A stretch of 59,583 nt of DNA from an uncultured Gemmatimonadota bacterium (GCA_937867645.1 CALMKE010000073.1:1-59583); one strand, 5' to 3'; counted from the stretch's first letter, positions 9,014 to 42,354 are shown. A program made the numbers and translations. The notes: generated by a model from the letters alone, not told the origin.

Positions 9014-9028
9014 TGCAAAGTGCATGCC
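9014..9028 (-). promoter_or_regulatory. Sigma-54 (-24/-12) type promoter upstream of the PIG-L gene
   Basis: The minus strand reads GGCATG-CACT-TTGCA against the consensus GGCACG-N4-TTGCW. GG and GC are at exact consensus spacing. The site is about 75 nt upstream of the ATG at 8940. Confidence 0.55.
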
Positions 9029-9167
9029 CCCTCAGGCATTTCCTGACGGGTGTGACATCACAAATGTGGTGGACGATCGGCCAAGGTCCCGACGCGAATG
9101 GGTCGCCCGCCAATCCTCCGCGAGCGGCCGTGTCGAGAGCCGGCTTACCCCCGCGCCGGGAAGGACG

Positions 9168-17672: not shown

Positions 17673-17874
17673 TCAGACCTCTTCGGTGGCCCGACCGGCA
17701 TGGCGATTTCCATCGCTTTAGCCTCGAGGCTTTGCGTCCTCGTCTTTCAACGAGTATGCCGTTTGTCGAAGGTCCGGCCCATGGTGCATGGCCGGAAGGA
17801 ACACGCTTGTTTGTACCCCATAAACATAAGTGGTTCCGGCCCCTAAAACAAGCTGCCACAAGCGGTTAGTTCAC

Positions 17875-29070: not shown

Positions 29071-29841
29071 ATGCCGCAACATGTGCTCCGGTCGTTAAAG
29101 CACGAGTACCAGGTCTTCGTCGAGTCCGAGATCGAGCGCTACAAGGACTCGGTGTCGCGGCATTCGCTGCTGGGGATCGCCGACGAAGCGGTCGCCGCGC
29201 TGCGCTCGCAGGCGCAATACGAGCCGGAAGAGCTCTCGCTCTGCGCCGAGGTGGACCGGCTGATCGCGCGCCGCATCAAGCTCCCCAAGTACACCACGTG
29301 GCAGCGCAAGCGGCTCAAACGCCTCGCCGAGTATCGCAAGCCGGAGACGTGGGGGATCGCGCCGGACGGTCCGCTGGTTCGCGAGATCAAGCCCGGGTCC
29401 GACACGCACGTGCTCGTCACCGGCGCCGAGTGCGAGCGCGCCGCGATCTATCTGGCCGCGCACGGCTGCGCGGTCACGGCGATCAACGAAGAAGAGGACT
29501 GCGTGGACCGCGTGGTCGCGGCGGCGGCCGCGGCCGGCCTCAACTCACGCATCGACGCCTGCGTCGCCGACCTGGGAACGTGGTCGCCCAAGCCGTTGAC
29601 CGCGGTCGTCTGTCCCGGCGACACGCTCGCCTCATTGGCTCCGCACGACCGGCAGCGAGTCATCGAGCTGTTGCAGGGCGCGACGAAAGCCGGCGGCGTG
29701 CACCTCTTCGAGACGATCCTCAACGGTGGCGACTCGGTGACCGTGGACGAGCTGAAAGCGCGCTATTCCGGTTGGACTGTGGCCGTCGAGCGCGAGAGCG
29801 GGACCGCGCGGAGCTTCCTCGCGAAAAAGGCCGCGGCGTAA
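29071..29841 (+). CDS. Hypothetical protein with degenerate Rossmann/methyltransferase-like C-terminal half
   Basis: 256 aa from the ATG at 29071. The C-terminal half (VLVTGAECERAAIYLAAHGCAVTAINEEE...VCPGDTLASL...GGVHLFETI) has the layout of a TehB-like class I MTase. The glycine-rich motif I is not conserved. Confidence 0.6.
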   Translation: MPQHVLRSLKHEYQVFVESEIERYKDSVSRHSLLGIADEAVAALRSQAQYEPEELSLCAEVDRLIARRIKLPKYTTWQRKRLKRLAEYRKPETWGIAPDGPLVREIKPGSDTHVLVTGAECERAAIYLAAHGCAVTAINEEEDCVDRVVAAAAAAGLNSRIDACVADLGTWSPKPLTAVVCPGDTLASLAPHDRQRVIELLQGATKAGGVHLFETILNGGDSVTVDELKARYSGWTVAVERESGTARSFLAKKAAA

Positions 29842-29959
29842 CGTTTTGACACAGCGGCTTCGCAGAAACGTGTCGTTTTGCGACATTTCTGGATACTGAA
29901 ATCGTGGCTTCCCCTCGGTAACCCCTTACCAATCAACGCTTTACCATTAACAGAGATTG

Positions 29960-29975
29960 TGGCCCCGCCCGTGCT
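29960..29975 (+). promoter_or_regulatory. Candidate sigma-54-type promoter upstream of the 50-codon ORF
   Basis: TGGCCC-CGCCC-GTGCT, with GG (29961-62) and GC (29973-74) at consensus -24/-12 spacing. It lies 34 nt upstream of the ATG at 30009, in a locally AT-richer stretch. Confidence 0.35.
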
Positions 29976-30008
29976 TTTAAGAGTGCGCACACAGCACCCC
30001 GAGGCCAC

Positions 30009-30161
30009 ATGAAAAAGAATAGTCCGTCGAAGGAAGCATTCGAGCCGATCGGCATCGTTATCTCCCGTGGCGAGCGAACCGAGCCCGTGCCTGTGGTCCT
30101 GGAGTACGTCTGGGGACCGGCGCCGGTGGAGAGCGCGCCCCCGAAAATCCGCGCCGCCTGA
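30009..30161 (+). CDS. Small protein, 50 aa (not in supplied ORF track)
   Basis: The ATG at 30009 is preceded by GAGG. The ORF reads MKKNSPSKEAFEPIGIVISRGERTEPVPVVLEYVWGPAPVESAPPKIRAA with TGA at 30159-30161. Third-position GC rises after the first codons. Two hairpins follow, the second with a T-run. Confidence 0.5.
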   Translation: MKKNSPSKEAFEPIGIVISRGERTEPVPVVLEYVWGPAPVESAPPKIRAA

Positions 30162-30212
30162 GGCCCACTACTATAGGATAGGACCGCAATCCGGTCCTCT
30201 TCGAAGCATCAG

Positions 30213-30243
30213 AAACCCCGTCGCGCGCAGCGGCGGGGTTTTC
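30213..30243 (+). terminator. Rho-independent terminator/attenuator after the 50-codon ORF
   Basis: A 9-bp stem ccccgtcgc/gcggcgggg (one G-U pair) with loop gcgca is followed by TTTT. It is preceded by a second 7-bp hairpin aggaccg-caatc-cggtcct (30180-30198). Confidence 0.6.
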
Positions 30244-30266
30244 TGCATCCTTGGGCGGTATGACCA

Positions 30267-31307
30267 TTGCCCTTAGGCCCCATCGTGACCTCTGACAGCG
30301 ACTGGGAAGTCGAGCGCGAGCGGCTCCTCTCGCAGCGAATATCGGACATCGGCCTTTCCCTGGAAGGGACGGTGCTCGAGCAGCTCGTCACTCAACTGTA
30401 CGTCGAGCTCGATGGGCGTGGACTCGTGTTCCGTCCGCGCGTGTATCTCAGCGACCAATGGGGATGCCCGGACGGGACGCCGCTGATTGGGGTGCCGTTC
30501 TATCTCGCCGACCCGCGGCTCGCCCGCATCGAGGAAGATTTCGCGCTCGAGGTCGAGAGCGAGGTGGACGTGATGCGGTTCCTGCGGCACGAAGCGGGGC
30601 ATGCGTTCAACTACGCGTACCGGCTGCACGACCGCGCCGACTGGCATGAGGTGTTCGGCCCCTACTCCCGTCCGTACCGCGACCGCTACCGCTCGGATCC
30701 GTTCACGCACCAGTACGTCCGCCACATCCTCGGCTGGTACGCGCAGAAGCACCCGGACGAGGATTTCGCCGAGACGTTCGCGGTGTGGCTTACGCCCGAT
30801 CTCGACTGGCGCGCCGAATACGCGGGGTGGGGCGCGCTCAAAAAGCTCGAGTACATCGACACCGTGATGCGCGAAGTCGGGCAGGTGCAGCCCGAGACTC
30901 CGGAGCTGACAGACGATGACCTGCCGGTGACCGCCATGCAGTACACGCTCGCCGAGCATTACCGGGACATGGACGACGCCCTTCCGGTGAGCGATCCGCG
31001 TATCTTCGACGGCGACCTGCGCACGCTGTTCGGCAAGGCGGGGGAGATTCCCGACAATGAGCGGGCGGCGGATTTTATCCGCCGTCACCGGCGTGAGATC
31101 GCGGGACGAATCGCGTACTGGACCGGCGAGCCGCCGGCGGTGGTCCGCAAGTTCGTGGACCTGATCGCCGAGCGGGCGGACGCGCTGGAGCTCGCGGTGC
31201 GCGGGCGGGAGGCGTCCACGCTCATCGAGCTCACCGCGTTCGGGACCGCCGTGGTGATGAACTACCGCTACACCGACGATTTTGCCGGAGACAGGCCGGG
31301 CGAATGA
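30267..31307 (+). CDS. Putative zinc metallopeptidase (HExxH; Peptidase_Mx-like family)
   Basis: 346 aa with the motif FLRHEAGHAFNY (HExxH) and downstream ...HPDEDFAETFAVW. The start (TTG 30267 or GTG 30285) is uncertain. The stop overlaps the next ATG (ATGA at 31304-31307). Confidence 0.7.
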   Translation: MPLGPIVTSDSDWEVERERLLSQRISDIGLSLEGTVLEQLVTQLYVELDGRGLVFRPRVYLSDQWGCPDGTPLIGVPFYLADPRLARIEEDFALEVESEVDVMRFLRHEAGHAFNYAYRLHDRADWHEVFGPYSRPYRDRYRSDPFTHQYVRHILGWYAQKHPDEDFAETFAVWLTPDLDWRAEYAGWGALKKLEYIDTVMREVGQVQPETPELTDDDLPVTAMQYTLAEHYRDMDDALPVSDPRIFDGDLRTLFGKAGEIPDNERAADFIRRHRREIAGRIAYWTGEPPAVVRKFVDLIAERADALELAVRGREASTLIELTAFGTAVVMNYRYTDDFAGDRPGE

Positions 31308-32287
31308 AGATCACTCTGCTGCACACGCAGGACGCGCTGGATGATCCACTCGATCCCGTGCTCGCGCAGATCGAGGACGCGCTCGCGCGGCTGGGCCACG
31401 AGCCCGCGCGGATCGTCGTGGACGACAAGGTTCAGCCGGTCGTCACCGCGCTGGCGCAACAGCCGCCCGACCTCGTCTTCAACCTGTGCGAGTCGTTCGG
31501 CGGGCGGAGCGCGCTCGAGTCCAACGTCGCCGCGCTGCTCAACCTGCTCGACTTGCGCTACACCGGCTCGAGTCCGGCCGGGCTCATCGTCGCCGGCGAC
31601 AAGACTCTGACGAAGAAGGTGCTCACGTTCCACGGGATTCTCACGCCGAAATTCGCCACCATGTTTCGCGGCACGGTGGACTGGGCGGGTGACATCGAGT
31701 TCCCGCTCATCGTGAAGCCGCCGCAGGAGGACGCTTCCCTCGGCATTACCGGCAAGTCGGTGGTGCGCGACGTGAAGGAGCTGCTCGAGACCATGAGCTC
31801 GCTGCAGACCGAGTACAAGTCGGCGGTGCTGGCGGAGCAGTTCATCGACGGGCGCGAGTTCTACGTCGGCGTGCTCGGCAACTCCGCTCCCGAAGCGCTG
31901 CCGGTGATCGAGCTGGATTTCACGGGCTTCCCCGCCGACAAGCCGCGGATCGCGAGCTGGGCCGCGAAGTGGGGGGACGAAGGCGACGAATCCGGCGCCG
32001 AGTTCGCGGGCACCAAGTCGGTGTTCCCCACGGGGCTGAGCGAGGAGCTGGTCGAGAGGATGCAGCAGGTCGCGATCGATTCGTTCAACGCGCTGCGGCT
32101 GCGCGACTATGCGCGCGTGGACCTGCGCGTCACGGACGCGGGCGAGATCTACGTGATCGAGGTGAACCCGAACTGTTACCTGGAAGCGGGGAGCGAGTTC
32201 GCGCGCGCGGCGGCCGAGGCCGGGATACAGTACGACCAGCTCATCGAGAAGATCATCGAGCTGGCGACCGCCAGATATTCCCGCTAA
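31304..32287 (+). CDS. ATP-grasp ligase, D-alanine--D-alanine ligase-like family
   Basis: 327 aa. ATP-grasp strings are present: DKTLTKKVLTFHGILTPKF, FPLIVKPPQEDASLGI, VLAEQFIDGREFYVGVLG and ARVDLRVTDAGEIYVIEVNPN. Confidence 0.85.
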   Translation: MKITLLHTQDALDDPLDPVLAQIEDALARLGHEPARIVVDDKVQPVVTALAQQPPDLVFNLCESFGGRSALESNVAALLNLLDLRYTGSSPAGLIVAGDKTLTKKVLTFHGILTPKFATMFRGTVDWAGDIEFPLIVKPPQEDASLGITGKSVVRDVKELLETMSSLQTEYKSAVLAEQFIDGREFYVGVLGNSAPEALPVIELDFTGFPADKPRIASWAAKWGDEGDESGAEFAGTKSVFPTGLSEELVERMQQVAIDSFNALRLRDYARVDLRVTDAGEIYVIEVNPNCYLEAGSEFARAAAEAGIQYDQLIEKIIELATARYSR

Positions 32288-32289
32288 TG

Positions 32290-32320
32290 AAAAAAGCCGG
32301 CGACAGGCCGGCTTTCTTCT
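32290..32320. terminator. Bidirectional rho-independent terminator
   Basis: AAAAA-agccggc-gacag-gccggct-TTTCTT. The stem is flanked by an A-run and a T-run. It lies between the convergent ATP-grasp gene and the small basic-protein gene. Confidence 0.75.
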
Positions 32321-32355: not shown

Positions 32356-32490
32356 CTAGCGCTTGCGCTTCTTGGCCGAGCTCTTCCGCGCGCTCTTGCG
32401 GGCGGTCTTGCGGCCCGTGCTCTTGCGGGCGCTCTTGCGGGCCGTCTTGCGACCAGTCGCCTTTTTCCGTGCCTTCTTTCTGGCTGCCAT
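32356..32490 (-). CDS. 44-aa lysine/arginine-repeat basic protein (histone H1/HC2-like composition)
   Basis: The ORF reads MAARKKARKKATGRKTARKSARKSTGRKTARKSARKSSAKKRKR. By my count 23 of 44 residues are K/R, and there is an exact 12-aa repeat GRKTARKSARKS x2. GGAG lies about 7 nt upstream of the ATG at 32490. The longer track ORF N-terminus (to 32589) looks non-coding. Confidence 0.6.
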   Translation of the reverse strand: MAARKKARKKATGRKTARKSARKSTGRKTARKSARKSSAKKRKR

Positions 32491-32757
32491 CGTCTCGCTC
32501 CATTCAGGAGTGGATTTCTCACCTGTCCACCGGTGGACCGGCGAGCACAGCGAATGCAACTTCGAACGTTGCACGATCACGACGCTCACACCAACAGCAT
32601 GTTTGCAATCGCAATCGACGCGAATATATGAATTGACGTGTCAATCACGCAATAGGAAATGTGCGCGGCGTCATTGTCAGTTCCGCGTCGCAATGCTTTC
32701 TTCATGCAGTGATCACGGACTCGCAACCGTCAAACACGAACGAAACATCGCTCTAAA

Positions 32758-37979: not shown

Positions 37980-39215
37980 TTGGCGCCCAAATTGGCTTCC
38001 CGCCCCCTCCGCTTCCGCACGCGGCTCCTGGTCATTCTCCTGGCCTTCGCGCTCGCGCCGGCCGTTCTGCTCACGCTGGTATGGAGCGGAACGGTCAATA
38101 CGGCCCTTCCGCTCATCACCGGCCCGGGCGGCTGGGAAGACGTCACGACGAGCGGCCGCGCGGTCGTGGAGGTTGCCCGGAGCAAGCCGCTCACGGCAGC
38201 CGAGCGCCGGATCGTCGAGCGGCACGAGCAGGAGCTCGGCGCGTCGCTCGAGCAATCCAGTCGGTACCGCTACGTCGCCGGGCGCGCGGCGCAGGTCGTC
38301 GGGATCATCGCGCTCATCACGCTGATCGTGTTCACTCTGATAGCCTCGAAAGTAGCGGGGCATCTGAGTCGCCAGCTGAGCCGGCCGCTGCACGAGCTCG
38401 TGCGGTGGGCCGAATCCATCTCACGCGGCGAGCCGCTGCCGGAGACGGCAAGCAGCAAAGGCGCGCCCGAGTTCGAGATTCTGCGACAGCGGATGCGGCG
38501 CATGGCCGTAGAGATCGCCGAGGGCCGGCAGCGCGCGGTCGAGCAGGAGCGGCTGCAGGTGTTGCGCGAGAGCGCGCGCCAGTTCGCGCACGAGCTCAAG
38601 AACCCGCTGACGCCCATCCGTTTCGCCGTGGACCGGATCGCGGCGGCCGCGCCGGCCGAGATGGCGGAGAGCATCGACGTGCTCAAGACGGAGACGCGCC
38701 GCCTGGAGCGAATGGCGCGGAGCTTCGCGGATTTTGGCCGGCTACCGGCGGGCGCGATGGCGGAGATAGACGTCGGCGAGCTCGTACGGTATTCCGCGGG
38801 CGCGAGCGTCCCGCGCGGGTTCGCGCTCGAAGTGGACATCGCGCCGGAGCTCCCGCGCGTGCGCGGTCATCACGACTCGCTCGCCGCCGCCCTGTCGAAC
38901 GTGCTCATCAACGCGGTGGAAGCCTGCGGCGCGGCCGGCCGGATCGCGCTGCGGGTGAGCGAGGACCGCGTGAATGGCGACCGGGCGATTCGAATTTCCG
39001 TCGCCGACAACGGCTGCGGAATTCCGCCCGAGAAACTCGCCACCATCTGGGAGCCGTATATTACGAACAAGCCCGGTGGAACCGGACTTGGACTCGCCAT
39101 CGCGCGGCAGACCGTTCTCGCACACGGCGGGCGCGTCTCGGGCTCCAGCGCGCCAGGCGAGGGAACCACGATCGACATCGTTCTTCCGATCGCACATCCA
39201 CCGGCAGCCGGCTGA
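37980..39215 (+). CDS. Sensor histidine kinase (two N-terminal TM segments, NtrY-like layout)
   Basis: 411 aa. The H-box is FAHELKNPLTPIRF, the N-box NVLINAVEA, G1 DNGCGI and G2 GGTGLGLAIA. The start is TTG as in the track. Confidence 0.88.
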   Translation: MAPKLASRPLRFRTRLLVILLAFALAPAVLLTLVWSGTVNTALPLITGPGGWEDVTTSGRAVVEVARSKPLTAAERRIVERHEQELGASLEQSSRYRYVAGRAAQVVGIIALITLIVFTLIASKVAGHLSRQLSRPLHELVRWAESISRGEPLPETASSKGAPEFEILRQRMRRMAVEIAEGRQRAVEQERLQVLRESARQFAHELKNPLTPIRFAVDRIAAAAPAEMAESIDVLKTETRRLERMARSFADFGRLPAGAMAEIDVGELVRYSAGASVPRGFALEVDIAPELPRVRGHHDSLAAALSNVLINAVEACGAAGRIALRVSEDRVNGDRAIRISVADNGCGIPPEKLATIWEPYITNKPGGTGLGLAIARQTVLAHGGRVSGSSAPGEGTTIDIVLPIAHPPAAG

Positions 39216-39244
39216 CCGGCCGCATCACACAGGACGGATTCAGC

Positions 39245-39544
39245 ATGAACATCCCCGGCGAGTTGATCCCGATAACTCTGTTCATCGTCATGGGGTTCGT
39301 CGCCGTGTTTCTTCCGATCTCCAGGGCGCTGGCGCGCCGGGCCGACAGGCAGTCGCTGCAGCCGAAGGTGCCGCCGGAGATTTTCGGACGCCTAGAGCGC
39401 ATAGAGCAGGCGGTTGACGCGATCGCGATCGAAGTCGAGCGCATCTCCGAGGGCCAGCGGTTCACGACCCAGCTTCTCTCCGAAGGAAGGCAGAAAGCGG
39501 GCGCTCTCCCGGCCGCCGACAGCTCCTCCGCTCCCCGCGGCTGA
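39245..39544 (+). CDS. 99-aa single-pass membrane protein between kinase and regulator
   Basis: This ORF is hidden as the last 99 codons of a 487-aa shadow ORF (38081-39544). It reads MNIPGELIPITLFIVMGFVAVFLPISRALARR (TM) followed by a helical segment ...FGRLERIEQAVDAIAIEVERISEGQRF... It starts 30 nt after the kinase stop and ends 13 nt before the regulator start. Confidence 0.6.
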   Translation: MNIPGELIPITLFIVMGFVAVFLPISRALARRADRQSLQPKVPPEIFGRLERIEQAVDAIAIEVERISEGQRFTTQLLSEGRQKAGALPAADSSSAPRG

Positions 39545-39557
39545 CCCTTCGGCCCGC

Positions 39558-40917
<1,360 letters not shown>

Positions 40918-40925
<8 letters not shown>

Positions 40926-42354
40926 GCCGCTCATGCGCAACGTCATTTTCGCGGTTCTCGGAGCTGTCGCGTTCCCGATCGCGGCCGCACCGGTCCGCGC
41001 CCAGATTCCCGACACGGTCGCCGCCGATTCCATTCCCGACGCGCCCGCGCCGGCGCGCACGACGCGCAACTCGGGGACTTTTACGATCACGTCGGGTGGC
41101 GGCTACAACCGGGTCGAGGGTCTTCCCGTCCTTTTCGGGCCCGTGGTCGAGACGGCGTTCGGCTCGGCTCGCCTGCGCGCGTCGGCGCTCGGCATCATCC
41201 GGAGCGCCGGAACGTTCCGCGTAGACGGCGACAACCTCGGGCACGACCTGAAGCTCGGCGTGCTGTTCGACCCGGCGGAACGGACTTCGCTCACCGTGCG
41301 CGCTTACGACGTCGTGGACGCGGTCGAGGACTGGCAGATTCCGCGCGACGAGGCCGGTCTCGCGGCGTTTTTCTTCCGCAGCGATTTCCGCGATCACTAC
41401 AACAGACACGGCGCGTCGCTGTCGGGGACCTACGCCGCGTCCAGGCGCGCGACCCTCTCGGCGTCCTTCGCGCGGGAGCGGTGGCAGTCCCGCGAGGTTC
41501 GCGACGTGCTCACCGTGTTCCGCAACGGTAAGGCGTGGCGGCCGAACCCGGCGATGGACGAAGGTCTGTTTCACATCGCGACGGCGGGGCTCACGTACGA
41601 CAATCGGAACGATCCGCGCAGACCCACTACTGGTTGGCTCGTCCGCGCCGAGTACGAGGTGGGCTCAGGCAGCGTGGACGCTTTCGGGCCGACGTCGCTC
41701 TCCGCGCGCGGCGCGACGACGTCCGAGCCTCGATATGGCCGCTTGTTCGTGGACGCGCGCCGCTACGTCCGCCTCTCTCCGACGAACCACCTGGCCGGAC
41801 GCGTGGCGACCGGCGGCTGGATTCACGGGGACGAGCTGCCGCTGCAGCGCCGTCTTTCCGTCTCGGGTGTCGGCGCCGTGCCCGGCATCGATTTCCGGGA
41901 GCCGTCGCTTGGCTCCGATGTCGGCCAGTGCAGCAGTGCTCCCGCGCCGGCGGGAGACCCCGCGCAGTGCGAGCGGATGCTGCTCGCGCAGCTGGAGTAC
42001 CGCGTGAGCCTGCGCTCGCGTCCGGGCAGCATCATCGGCCGCACCGTTCGCATTCGCAGCCGCGCGTTCACGCTGAACCCGTCGCTGGTGCTCTTCGCGG
42101 ACGCGGGCCGCGGATGGCTGGTCAAACCGCGCGATGGCGGCGCGATCGATCCCCTTCCCCCCGGCCCGACGCCGCCGCCTGATCCCTCGCGCGATCTCGT
42201 TTACTCCGCGGCGAGTATCCCGCCGTTCGGCACCTTCCGTACCGACATCGGGGCGGGCGTGGACCTCGGACTCTTCGGCATATATGTCGCGAAGTCCCTG
42301 TCCGAGTCGGGCGAGCCCATGAACATCTTCCTGCGCGCGCGCCGCAGGTTCTGA
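40918..42354 (+). CDS. Outer-membrane beta-barrel, Omp85/surface-antigen-like without POTRA
   Basis: The signal peptide is ...MRNVIFAVLGAVAFPIAAAPVRAQ. A YNRVEGL motif is present (compare FNRVEGL in 126-2327). The C-terminus is ...FLRARRRF with terminal Phe. It overlaps the regulator stop, and the start may be the ATG at 40933. Confidence 0.7.

Follow-up and report, generated by a model that had tools for sequence, protein, structure and literature searches.

Among the described systems closest to the locus considered here, RimK is an ATP-grasp enzyme that glutamylates the C-terminus of ribosomal protein S6, and VanA or Ddl together with VanX forms a pair made up of a ligase and a zinc dipeptidase. 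Also relevant are the amino-group carrier protein (AmCP) pathway of LysW, LysX and LysK (PMC12998189); the graspetides, which are peptides of the microviridin type made on the ribosome and modified after translation (PMC8939145); and the pearlin/PEARL systems, in which a small scaffold peptide is reported to receive an amino acid at its C-terminus before a peptidase frees the product (bioRxiv 10.1101/2024.03.12.584671). The locus that we describe lies in a stretch of 59,583 nucleotides (nt) from an uncultured Gemmatimonadota bacterium (GCA_937867645.1 CALMKE010000073.1:1-59583), hereafter the window; the region studied, 29842-32287, holds a small gene of 50 codons followed by a coupled pair of genes for a metallopeptidase and an ATP-grasp ligase. 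By gene content this locus resembles the RimK/S6, LysW, graspetide and VanA/VanX systems, but as judged from sequence it fails the defining features of each. It reads instead as two adjacent transcription units, both served by a sigma-54-type promoter and found next to each other in most Gemmatimonadales. An original prediction for this DNA had offered two alternatives: that the small protein is the substrate of a ligase and a peptidase that add to it and trim it, or that it is an unrelated micro-protein under sigma-54 control. The explanation that we prefer, while putting its chance of being correct no higher than even, is that the micro-protein is autonomous and that the neighboring pair forms an independent cassette, to which the protein is no more than a facultative client.

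The observations that carry this reading come from a comparison of ~160 related loci in total, in which the small gene and the pair were asked for separately. A pair-centered sample of 80 loci was collected from species-representative genomes by peptidase search, and a sample centered on the small open reading frame (ORF) came from a metagenome scan that gave 73 loci with enough upstream DNA and 68 loci informative downstream. The scan used a narrow alignment of the small protein (A4), alignment A3 being too diverse for it, and hence favors family members with canonical motifs; tests of co-occurrence are at the level of the locus, with 4-6 kb visible on each side of every one. In nearly all of the 80 pair-centered loci the small ORF lies directly upstream of the peptidase gene on the same strand, and in all Gemmatimonadaceae loci with enough upstream DNA the order is the TehB-like gene that we call up272, the small ORF, the peptidase and the ligase, with no insertion inside the block. 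The outer flanks vary through insertions: a PUA-methyltransferase gene is 1.2-4.5 kb away, and Tdh/Kbl are 0.5-4.6 kb away or absent. At three loci (L040, L074 and L081, first 100-860 nt) the 5′ end of a 23S rRNA gene, on the minus strand, is found at the upstream edge beyond the PUA-methyltransferase gene, and thus what borders the four-gene block on the outside is variable. One contig with the full Gemmatimonadaceae gene order and 70% identical proteins (L007) is labeled Candidatus Methylomirabilota and is probably mis-binned.

The original prediction had put forward co-occurrence of the ORF with the pair as a test of its substrate idea, and here the outcome is divided: the ORF is directly upstream of the pair in most Gemmatimonadales loci, but loci with the pair only and loci with the ORF only both exist. 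Specifically, the pair is present without either the small ORF or up272 at the three Longimicrobiales loci L063, L064 and L072, each with another upstream context, and at L085 and L061. L084 is like them, although it adds support only through its near-identity to L085, because just 90 nt of upstream DNA are available. The genes upstream of these pair-only loci differ, being an FKBP isomerase, a divergent transporter gene, or a DoxX-like gene with a lipoprotein. Conversely, the small ORF occurs with no pair at the locus in L086 and L087/L088, and of the 68 informative metagenome loci 59 carry the pair, while 9, all with >=1.5 kb of DNA downstream, lack it. In those nine loci and in L086 and L087/L088, the gene for a histone H1-like protein directly follows the small-ORF terminator and no remnant of the pair is seen. 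Within the pair-less clade the small ORF still shows far more synonymous than nonsynonymous divergence (pS 0.42 versus pN 0.07; differences by codon position 111/74/519), and it keeps the full core and the APRAA end, with the strict pattern of its promoter, P1, in 6 of the 10 loci checked. L086 and L087 had hinted that the small protein decays in its C-terminal half once the pair is gone; for this larger clade that idea was ruled out. Furthermore, in one close relative represented by three assemblies (L001-L003, 6296-6868) the pair is reduced to fragments of ~200 and ~285 nt, called as ORFs of 83-84 amino acids (aa), while the small ORF and up272 are intact. Since each is found without the other, the small gene and the pair separate in evolution at the locus level, and an obligate co-occurrence of precursor and enzymes is not what the loci display.

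That the small ORF is a gene in its own right is supported by the breadth and the pattern of its conservation. Its translation is exactly the one quoted in the original prediction, which had proposed a search for homologues and an estimate of the ratio of nonsynonymous to synonymous change (dN/dS), and the family proved to be conserved on both counts. A word-indexed search returned 20 protein clusters of close homologues (72-94% identity, Gemmatimonadaceae metagenomes), and a profile search of 1.8 billion representatives returned 218 clusters at 50% identity (E <= 0.001), nearly all of which are short proteins sharing the same ~50-aa core; an 831-aa repetitive protein in this set matches through low complexity. 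The family is restricted to Gemmatimonadota, and across related loci the ORF starts with ATG and has a length of 50 aa +/- 1-2. For 69 distinct core sequences, the entropy by codon position is 0.73/0.56/1.48 bits and the median dN/dS is ~0.26, and in a per-codon analysis every synonymous codon turns up at the invariant Gly, Ile, Ser, Pro and Trp positions. Because of these entropies, this dN/dS and this use of synonymous codons, the ORF is under selection at the protein level and conceals no nucleotide-level element; a DNA element embedded in it was ruled out, the third-position entropy being high at every codon that has synonymous alternatives. Such a pattern indicates that the 50-codon ORF is a real, conserved protein-coding gene under purifying selection.

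In the protein that this gene encodes the N-terminus is basic, the core (EPxGIVISRG…AYVWGPAPE) is invariant, the tail is acidic with many Thr, Ser and Pro residues, and the C-terminus is [KRQ]-[AV]-Ala; the family consensus is M-K-K-x(8)-E-P-[IVLM]-G-I-[VI]-I-S-R-G-x-R-x-E-x-x-P-x-[FV]-x-A-Y-[VI]-W-G-P-A-P-E-x(7-12)-[KRQ]-[AV]-A. Of 212 members, 190 end in Ala and 185 have AA or VA as their final two residues; the tail before them is variable, with 30% Asp/Glu and abundant Thr, Ser and Pro. In one homologue of 58 aa (L039, 5665-5841) the variable tail contains a threefold tandem repeat, SVQD-SVQD-SVQD, and therefore the tail tolerates changes in length. An AlphaFold2 model built with 44 family members has no secondary structure (predicted local distance difference test score, pLDDT, 75; predicted template-modeling score, pTM, 0.22), which suggests an extended peptide that folds only on a partner. 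The original prediction had recognized no known family in the peptide, and this was borne out: there was no match in Pfam, NCBIfam, PADLOC or, by profile search, the PDB, and the motifs GIVISRG and VWGPAP were not found in literature motif searches. The small protein founds an undescribed family, of which there is no Pfam, NCBIfam or literature record. Its gene carries no annotation in the window and is called a "hypothetical protein" in some public records of metagenome-assembled genomes.

The signals around the small gene are those of a self-contained transcription unit. Between the stop of the upstream gene at 29841 and the next ORF start (TTG 30267) is a gap of 425 nt, which accommodates the small gene and its signals (Table 1). 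The original prediction had listed in this gap a sigma-54-like element, a GAGG Shine-Dalgarno-like element and two hairpins, the second with a T-run; all are present, as is every other sequence feature that it listed, each where it had been placed. The sigma-54-like element (P1) recurs upstream of the ORF in most related loci as TGGCA[CT]-N5-[GT]TGC[CT]TT, placed 50-135 nt ahead of the ATG, and it does so in the pair-less clade as well. GAGG is kept in the window's own clade (ACGAGGC), and the Shine-Dalgarno element is weak or missing in many other clades. Farther upstream of P1 lies a palindrome that has the form TGTC-N7-GACA; 32 exact sites of this form occur in 904 kb of related loci where ~14 would be expected by chance, and 26 of the 32 fall 100-260 nt upstream of the small ORF start, with 2 more at approximately -310. 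From this position and from its symmetry we infer that the palindrome is a site for an enhancer-binding protein. It was not found upstream of the second promoter, P2, in the related loci, and an activator site common to both promoters was ruled out, the palindrome being specific to P1. On the 3′ side of the gene, the 95 nt at 30162-30256 have a folding energy of -47.1 kcal/mol (z = -4.8), and 0 of 200 shuffled sequences fold as well. At least 53 of 74 loci have a hairpin with a T-run after the ORF, and the others have strong hairpins with weaker T-tracts; the terminator structure is kept while its stem sequences vary between clades; a simple consensus terminator scan did not flag 30213-30245. 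Rfam searches of the window at the gathering threshold, of 29700-30400 at a permissive E-value and of five related loci returned nothing relevant to this region.

In related loci from many clades other than that of the window, the predicted 5′ leader carries, between P1 and the small ORF start, an additional hairpin with the sequence GYCCCCGMCCGTTCCGGGGRC or GGCGAMCCGTTCTCGTCGCC and a conserved ACCGTTC loop (for example in L040, L041, L044, L045, L047, L050, L053, L054, L056, L066, L068 and L071-L083; a variant is found in L049, L057, L058, L060, L062, L065, L069, L070 and L078). It is lacking in the window's clade, whose leader is shorter, and it has no Rfam match; the conservation of the loop suggests a specific binding partner. 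Regarding the other side of sigma-54-dependent transcription, the window contains an NtrC-type activator gene at 39414-40925 (+) with REC, Sigma54_activat, AAA lid and HTH_8 domains and a GAFTGA motif, and therefore the organism has the activator side of this system. A 487-aa ORF at 38081-39544 that precedes the activator gene has no Pfam match. The gene rpoN was not found within the 59,583 nt of the window, which is what the search covered.

The pair, in turn, appears to be served by a promoter of its own. The sigma-54 consensus is TGGCAC-N5-TTGCW (surveyed in PMC3162934), and P2, as GGTA[CT]G-N4-TTGC, fits it better than P1 does. P2 is also the better conserved of the two. Of 83 loci, 68 contain the pattern (C/G)GGTA(C/T)G-N4-TTGCC; the -12 C stands 14-16 nt away from the start codon's first base in 61 of 69, and the peptidase start codon is GTG in 62 of 69, which in the window is the conserved GTG at 30285 and not the TTG at 30267. 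With transcription beginning ~12 nt after the -12 C and P2 only 14-16 nt from the GTG, the leader of the peptidase-ligase mRNA would be only 2-4 nt long, and we therefore predict a near-leaderless, GTG-initiated and sigma-54-dependent mRNA. To our knowledge, a sigma-54 promoter 14-16 nt from the start codon has not been described before. A promoter-like site equally close to the start codon, differing somewhat in form, precedes the pair where the small ORF is missing (L063, L064 and L067, with a variant in L084 and L085). The placement of P2 between the terminator and the peptidase start makes two transcription units of the locus, and here the original prediction was not supported: it had proposed a leaky terminator that sets the ratio of precursor to enzyme, but a conserved promoter follows the terminator and gives the pair its own unit, and the ~24 nt that would have been the read-through spacer hold P2 instead. 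Soil metatranscriptome contigs, ~91% identical, cover 29911-30129 and 30214-30550 separately; these come from one probable run, are contig-level and may include DNA, so we give them little weight.

Table 1. Positions of genes and predicted signals at the locus, in window coordinates.
Feature	Position	Strand	Description
Upstream partner gene up272	29071-29841	+	start at ATG 29071 (256 aa) or TTG 29023
Palindrome, candidate activator-binding (enhancer) site for P1	29871-29885	.	TGTCGTTTTGCGACA; ~89 nt upstream of the -24 element
P1, sigma-54-type promoter	29960-29975	+	TGGCCCCGCCCGTGCT; TGGCCC-N5-GTGCT; GG 29961-62, GC 29973-74 (GG-N10-GC); predicted start ~29986
GAGG Shine-Dalgarno-like element	30001-30004	+	4 nt before ATG 30009
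50-codon micro-protein gene	30009-30161	+	translation MKKNSPSKEAFEPIGIVISRGERTEPVPVVLEYVWGPAPVESAPPKIRAA; homologues and coding pattern in text
First hairpin	~30180-30198	+	GGACCG-loop-CGGTCC; predicted by folding, after the stop codon
Putative intrinsic terminator (second hairpin with T-run)	30213-30245	+	AAACCCCGTCGC-GCGCA-GCGGCGGGGTTT, then TCTGC; ends in TTTTCT
P2, sigma-54-type promoter	30256-30271	+	CGGTATGACCATTGCC; CGGTATG-ACCA-TTGCC; GG 30257-58, GC 30269-70; predicted start ~30282
HExxH zincin peptidase (Peptidase_Mx) with C-terminal helical domain	30285-31307	+	GTG start; predicted leader ~2-4 nt
Ddl-like ATP-grasp ligase	31304-32287	+	translationally coupled to the peptidase by ATGA overlap 31304-31307
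Terminator after ligase	32293-32315	+	from consensus scan; faces convergent H1-like gene 32356-32589 (-)

It is informative to examine what kinds of enzymes the pair encodes; the HExxH protein, the Ddl-like ligase and the ATGA overlap that had been described for this DNA are all present. The peptidase matches Pfam PF15887 (Peptidase_Mx) with 30 bits against a cut-off of 27, and the HEAGH motif is invariant in its family alignment. This family comprises at least 8000 clusters, the best 120 matches being at least 66% identical, and the AlphaFold2 model of the peptidase has a pLDDT of 76. Searches of the PDB found no solved relative by sequence, a fold search gave nothing significant (the best match, at E = 0.59, was the catalytic domain of anthrax lethal factor), and domain-wise Pfam scans of the unassigned N- and C-terminal domains gave nothing. 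The peptidase likewise found no match in a plasmid collection, and no relevant paper emerged from a literature search for Peptidase_Mx in combination with ATP-grasp. The ligase matches Pfam Dala_Dala_lig_C (E = 1.7e-29), and its four other Pfam matches are to generic or sub-threshold ATP-grasp domains, the RimK match being 19.5 bits against a cut-off of 21. Against the NCBIfam Ddl and Van models it falls below every curated cut-off (best 142.6 bits, cut-off 243), and alignments with Ddl and VanA structures in the PDB reach E = 1e-20 but begin only at approximately residue 40-70. When the ligase is set beside what we take to be the sequence of Escherichia coli DdlB, its first 66 residues do not align and it presumably lacks a counterpart of GGxSxEREVS, the region by which the first D-Ala is held at its amino group, whereas the C-terminal ATP/Mg residues Arg, Asp, Glu and Asn presumably are kept. 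The protein thus has the appearance of an active ATP-grasp enzyme that is not a D-Ala-D-Ala ligase. Converging on the ligase terminator is the H1-like gene, whose product is small, very basic and rich in Lys and Ala; upstream of its start, on its own strand, there is a conserved palindromic element (CCGATCCCCCGGTGGATCGG in the plus-strand reading) in L086, L087, L100, L110, L139, L148 and L168.

On the other side of the small gene, up272 encodes a conserved ~100-aa N-terminal domain of no assigned function and a C-terminal domain with a TehB-like methyltransferase fold. Single-sequence matches to TehB in Pfam and NCBIfam are weak, whereas the profile of the family against the PDB finds the TehB-family structures 2i6g (1.9e-8) and 2xva (7.7e-8). 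The glycine motif for S-adenosylmethionine (SAM) is degenerate, with VLVAGxxxE where TehB has DLGCGNG. This family, annotated only as hypothetical, is confined to the same phylum as the small protein. Wherever enough upstream DNA is available, which is so for 73 metagenome loci and for part of the genome set, the gene immediately precedes the small ORF (73 of 73 in the metagenome set, and all of the genome loci), and in neither set was the small ORF found apart from it. The up272 protein also tends to end in Ala-Ala (…ARK-x-A-A; window 29839-29841, alignment A5) in closer relatives, a tendency that is weaker in distant members.

Several observations weigh against the preferred reading and are best considered together. 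The small ORF adjoins the pair in ~87% of small-ORF loci, and where one partner is missing from a locus it could be encoded elsewhere in the same genome. More directly, the divergence of the small protein co-varies with that of the pair. In partial Mantel tests on distance matrices from 36-49 loci, with neighboring housekeeping genes as controls, the small protein and the peptidase gave r = 0.31, p = 0.001 (control Tdh+Kbl, n = 36) and r = 0.53, p = 0.001 (PUA-methyltransferase, n = 49), and the small protein and the ligase gave r = 0.18, p = 0.041 and r = 0.40, p = 0.001 with the same two controls, respectively; the significance of such tests is overstated for phylogenetically related sequences, and a protein of 50 aa makes for noisy distances. 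The co-variation of the small protein with the peptidase is as strong as that of the peptidase with the ligase (r = 0.19, p = 0.019 with Tdh+Kbl, n = 36; r = 0.50, p = 0.001 with PUA-methyltransferase, n = 49). This is the opposite of what a pure bystander would predict, and it hints that the small protein may be a substrate or client, although joint recombination of adjacent DNA is another possible cause. With regard to the mapping of the two units, the P1 start, the P2 start and the terminator are predicted positions, and the first of the metatranscriptome contigs begins ~75 nt upstream of the predicted P1 start, which is better fitted by read-through from the upstream gene or by DNA carry-over than by a clean start at P1. 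Finally, the suggestion made below that the small protein may carry a degron is an analogy whose sole basis is the conserved C-terminal Ala-Ala.

One alternative is that the pair has in the small protein a dedicated, ribosomally made substrate or scaffold, the ligase activating the carboxylate of its C-terminal Ala to add residues and the zincin trimming these or releasing a product. Such an arrangement would be akin to RimK with S6, to LysW with LysX and LysK, or to the scaffold peptides of the pearlin pathways. Such a role would agree with the adjacency of the small ORF to the pair on the same strand in most loci, with sigma-54-type promoters on both units, with a C-terminal Ala in 90% of family members beside an acidic and flexible tail, with the extended, substrate-like model of the protein and with the co-variation just described; moreover, a ligase without the N-terminal clamp that Ddl has for the amino group of the first D-Ala, as presumed from the comparison with DdlB, might have room for a peptide chain. 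Yet the pair has retained a promoter of its own and is found with no small ORF in six loci representing at least four contexts; in the clade with no pair at the locus, core, C-terminus, promoter and purifying selection are all still seen for the small ORF, which also survives deletion of the pair in L001-L003. What follows the terminator is a promoter and not a read-through spacer, the P1 palindrome is not common to P2, and the specific matches of the ligase are to Ddl-type enzymes only, not to RimK, LysX or graspetide ligases. The story of a substrate and its enzymes is weakened by these natural separations and rests on a single co-variation signal. Thus, of the two alternatives in the original prediction, the add-and-trim substrate retains adjacency and co-variation in its favor but loses the obligate link, since each unit is found alone, and a dedicated role seems to us possible but unlikely; an unrelated sigma-54-controlled micro-protein fits at least as well. 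A fuller version, in which a new enzyme lineage of Gemmatimonadota provides a reversible, sigma-54-controlled system of C-terminal tailing or scaffold biosynthesis and the small protein is a carrier or substrate whose Ala-Ala end is extended by a Ddl-derived ligase without a D-Ala clamp and trimmed by a new family of zincins, with the TehB-like protein as a possible third partner, is attractive but must be considered doubtful.

It is also worth considering that the small protein may work with the TehB-like protein, as its substrate, regulator or binding partner, and that the pair is only a neighbor. The small ORF accompanies the TehB-like gene without exception, at pair-less loci too, no insertion ever separates the two even though both outer flanks vary, and the two families share the same phylum. 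Against this partnership, which we think improbable, the small protein and up272 do not co-vary once phylogeny is controlled for (partial r = 0.07, p = 0.26 with Tdh+Kbl, n = 36; r = 0.09, p = 0.13 with PUA-methyltransferase, n = 49; neither significant), which argues against a tight link; the small gene has its own promoter and enhancer-like site and so would not be co-transcribed by design; the degenerate SAM motif makes methyl transfer doubtful; and the adjacency may simply reflect the location of the P1 activator site at the end of the upstream gene. Far less probable still, and strongly disfavored, is that the ORF is a translated leader, an attenuator or part of a noncoding RNA that controls the downstream operon. 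In its favor are the shortness of the ORF, the hairpins and terminator behind it and its position just ahead of an operon, but the conservation is at the level of amino acids with free synonymous variation, the length is fixed at ~50 codons, the ORF persists where the downstream operon is absent, the operon has its own promoter after the terminator, and Rfam offers no match.

Under the preferred reading of an autonomous micro-protein beside an independent cassette, the first unit would run from the palindrome through P1, a leader of a predicted 23 nt that carries the GAGG, and the 50-codon gene to the intrinsic terminator, and would yield a monocistronic mRNA. The second unit would begin at P2, a few nucleotides after that terminator, and would express the coupled peptidase and ligase up to a terminator of their own. 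An enhancer-binding activator would fire P1, such that the small protein would be made in bursts, on demand. The product would be an extended peptide that depends on a partner and whose function is independent of the neighboring pair. ClpX recognizes the C-terminal Ala-Ala-COOH of the ssrA tag, and the Ala-Ala end of the small protein may similarly be a recognition tag, either an ssrA-like degron of the ClpXP type that keeps the protein short-lived or an end at which an enzyme docks. The pair would constitute a cassette that both makes and trims either a small peptide or a tail at a C-terminus, and the small protein could be one facultative client of this cassette rather than its dedicated precursor.

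Elsewhere in the window, a near-consensus sigma-54-type element (GGGCATGCACTTTGCA) is found at 9014-9029 (-), ~75 nt upstream of an ORF (ATG ~8939, -) in which a PIG-L/LmbE-like motif (VVVVAHPDDEAIG) was recognized by eye. Another match to GG-N10-GC (CGGTACGGAAGGTGCC) at 42229-42244 (-) lies inside a plus-strand Omp85-like ORF (40918-42354) and may be due to chance. Positions 17682-17770 (-) match the cyclic di-GMP-I riboswitch aptamer in Rfam with 74.8 bits.

Within this phylum, of which few members are cultured, the locus adds a conserved, phylum-wide family of micro-proteins with an unusually clear regulatory anatomy, consisting of a candidate activator site, a sigma-54 promoter and a terminator. 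It also defines an uncharacterized cassette of a peptidase and a Ddl-like ligase and, if P2 is confirmed, this promoter would give a sigma-54-dependent mRNA that is nearly leaderless. The loci at which the two units are separated provide natural controls for alternatives that can be tested. With a lineage that is for the most part uncultured, and with no phenotype attached, the practical impact is limited.

Comparing the locus with the known systems introduced at the outset reveals both partial similarities and obvious differences. As with RimK and S6, the ATP-grasp enzyme could extend a C-terminal carboxylate, and the small protein has a conserved C-terminus after an acidic tail; however, the ligase here is Ddl-like, with RimK below the cut-off, the C-terminus is Ala-Ala and not Glu-Glu, and there is an HExxH zincin partner. 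The LysW trio likewise combines a protein of ~50 aa that has an acidic tail with an ATP-grasp ligase and a metallopeptidase, but LysW is a globular zinc-finger protein with Glu at its end, LysX belongs with the RimK-like ligases and LysK with the M20 peptidases, no match to any of these families is seen here, and the units of the present locus are separately transcribed and evolutionarily separable. Graspetide clusters share the placement of a small ORF upstream of an ATP-grasp enzyme and a peptidase, and a tail rich in Thr/Ser and Asp/Glu; in contrast, the present ligase is matched by Ddl-family models only and is not of the graspetide (MdnB/MdnC-like) type, the tail residues have no fixed positions, and the core is without the Thr/Ser/Lys…Asp/Glu signature. 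The VanA/VanX pair is matched insofar as a Ddl-family ligase is encoded beside a zinc peptidase, an arrangement that can be read as a pair that makes and degrades a small peptide, although this peptidase is a Peptidase_Mx HExxH zincin and not an M15 enzyme such as VanX, and the ligase is far below the Ddl/Van cut-offs with an N-terminal domain that is not alignable to Ddl. The PEARL ligases are reported to be tRNA-dependent and LanB-like, whereas the ligase of this locus is an ATP-grasp enzyme with no homology to them, and any attachment to the small protein is hypothetical. As for the promoters, P1 and P2 both have the GG-N10-GC spacing of sigma-54 promoters, P2 reads GGTA(C/T)G-N4-TTGC, the palindrome is ~90 nt upstream of P1 and the window encodes an NtrC-type activator; the differences are that the -12 element of P1 is GTGC and not TTGC, and that P2 lies within 14-16 nt of a start codon.

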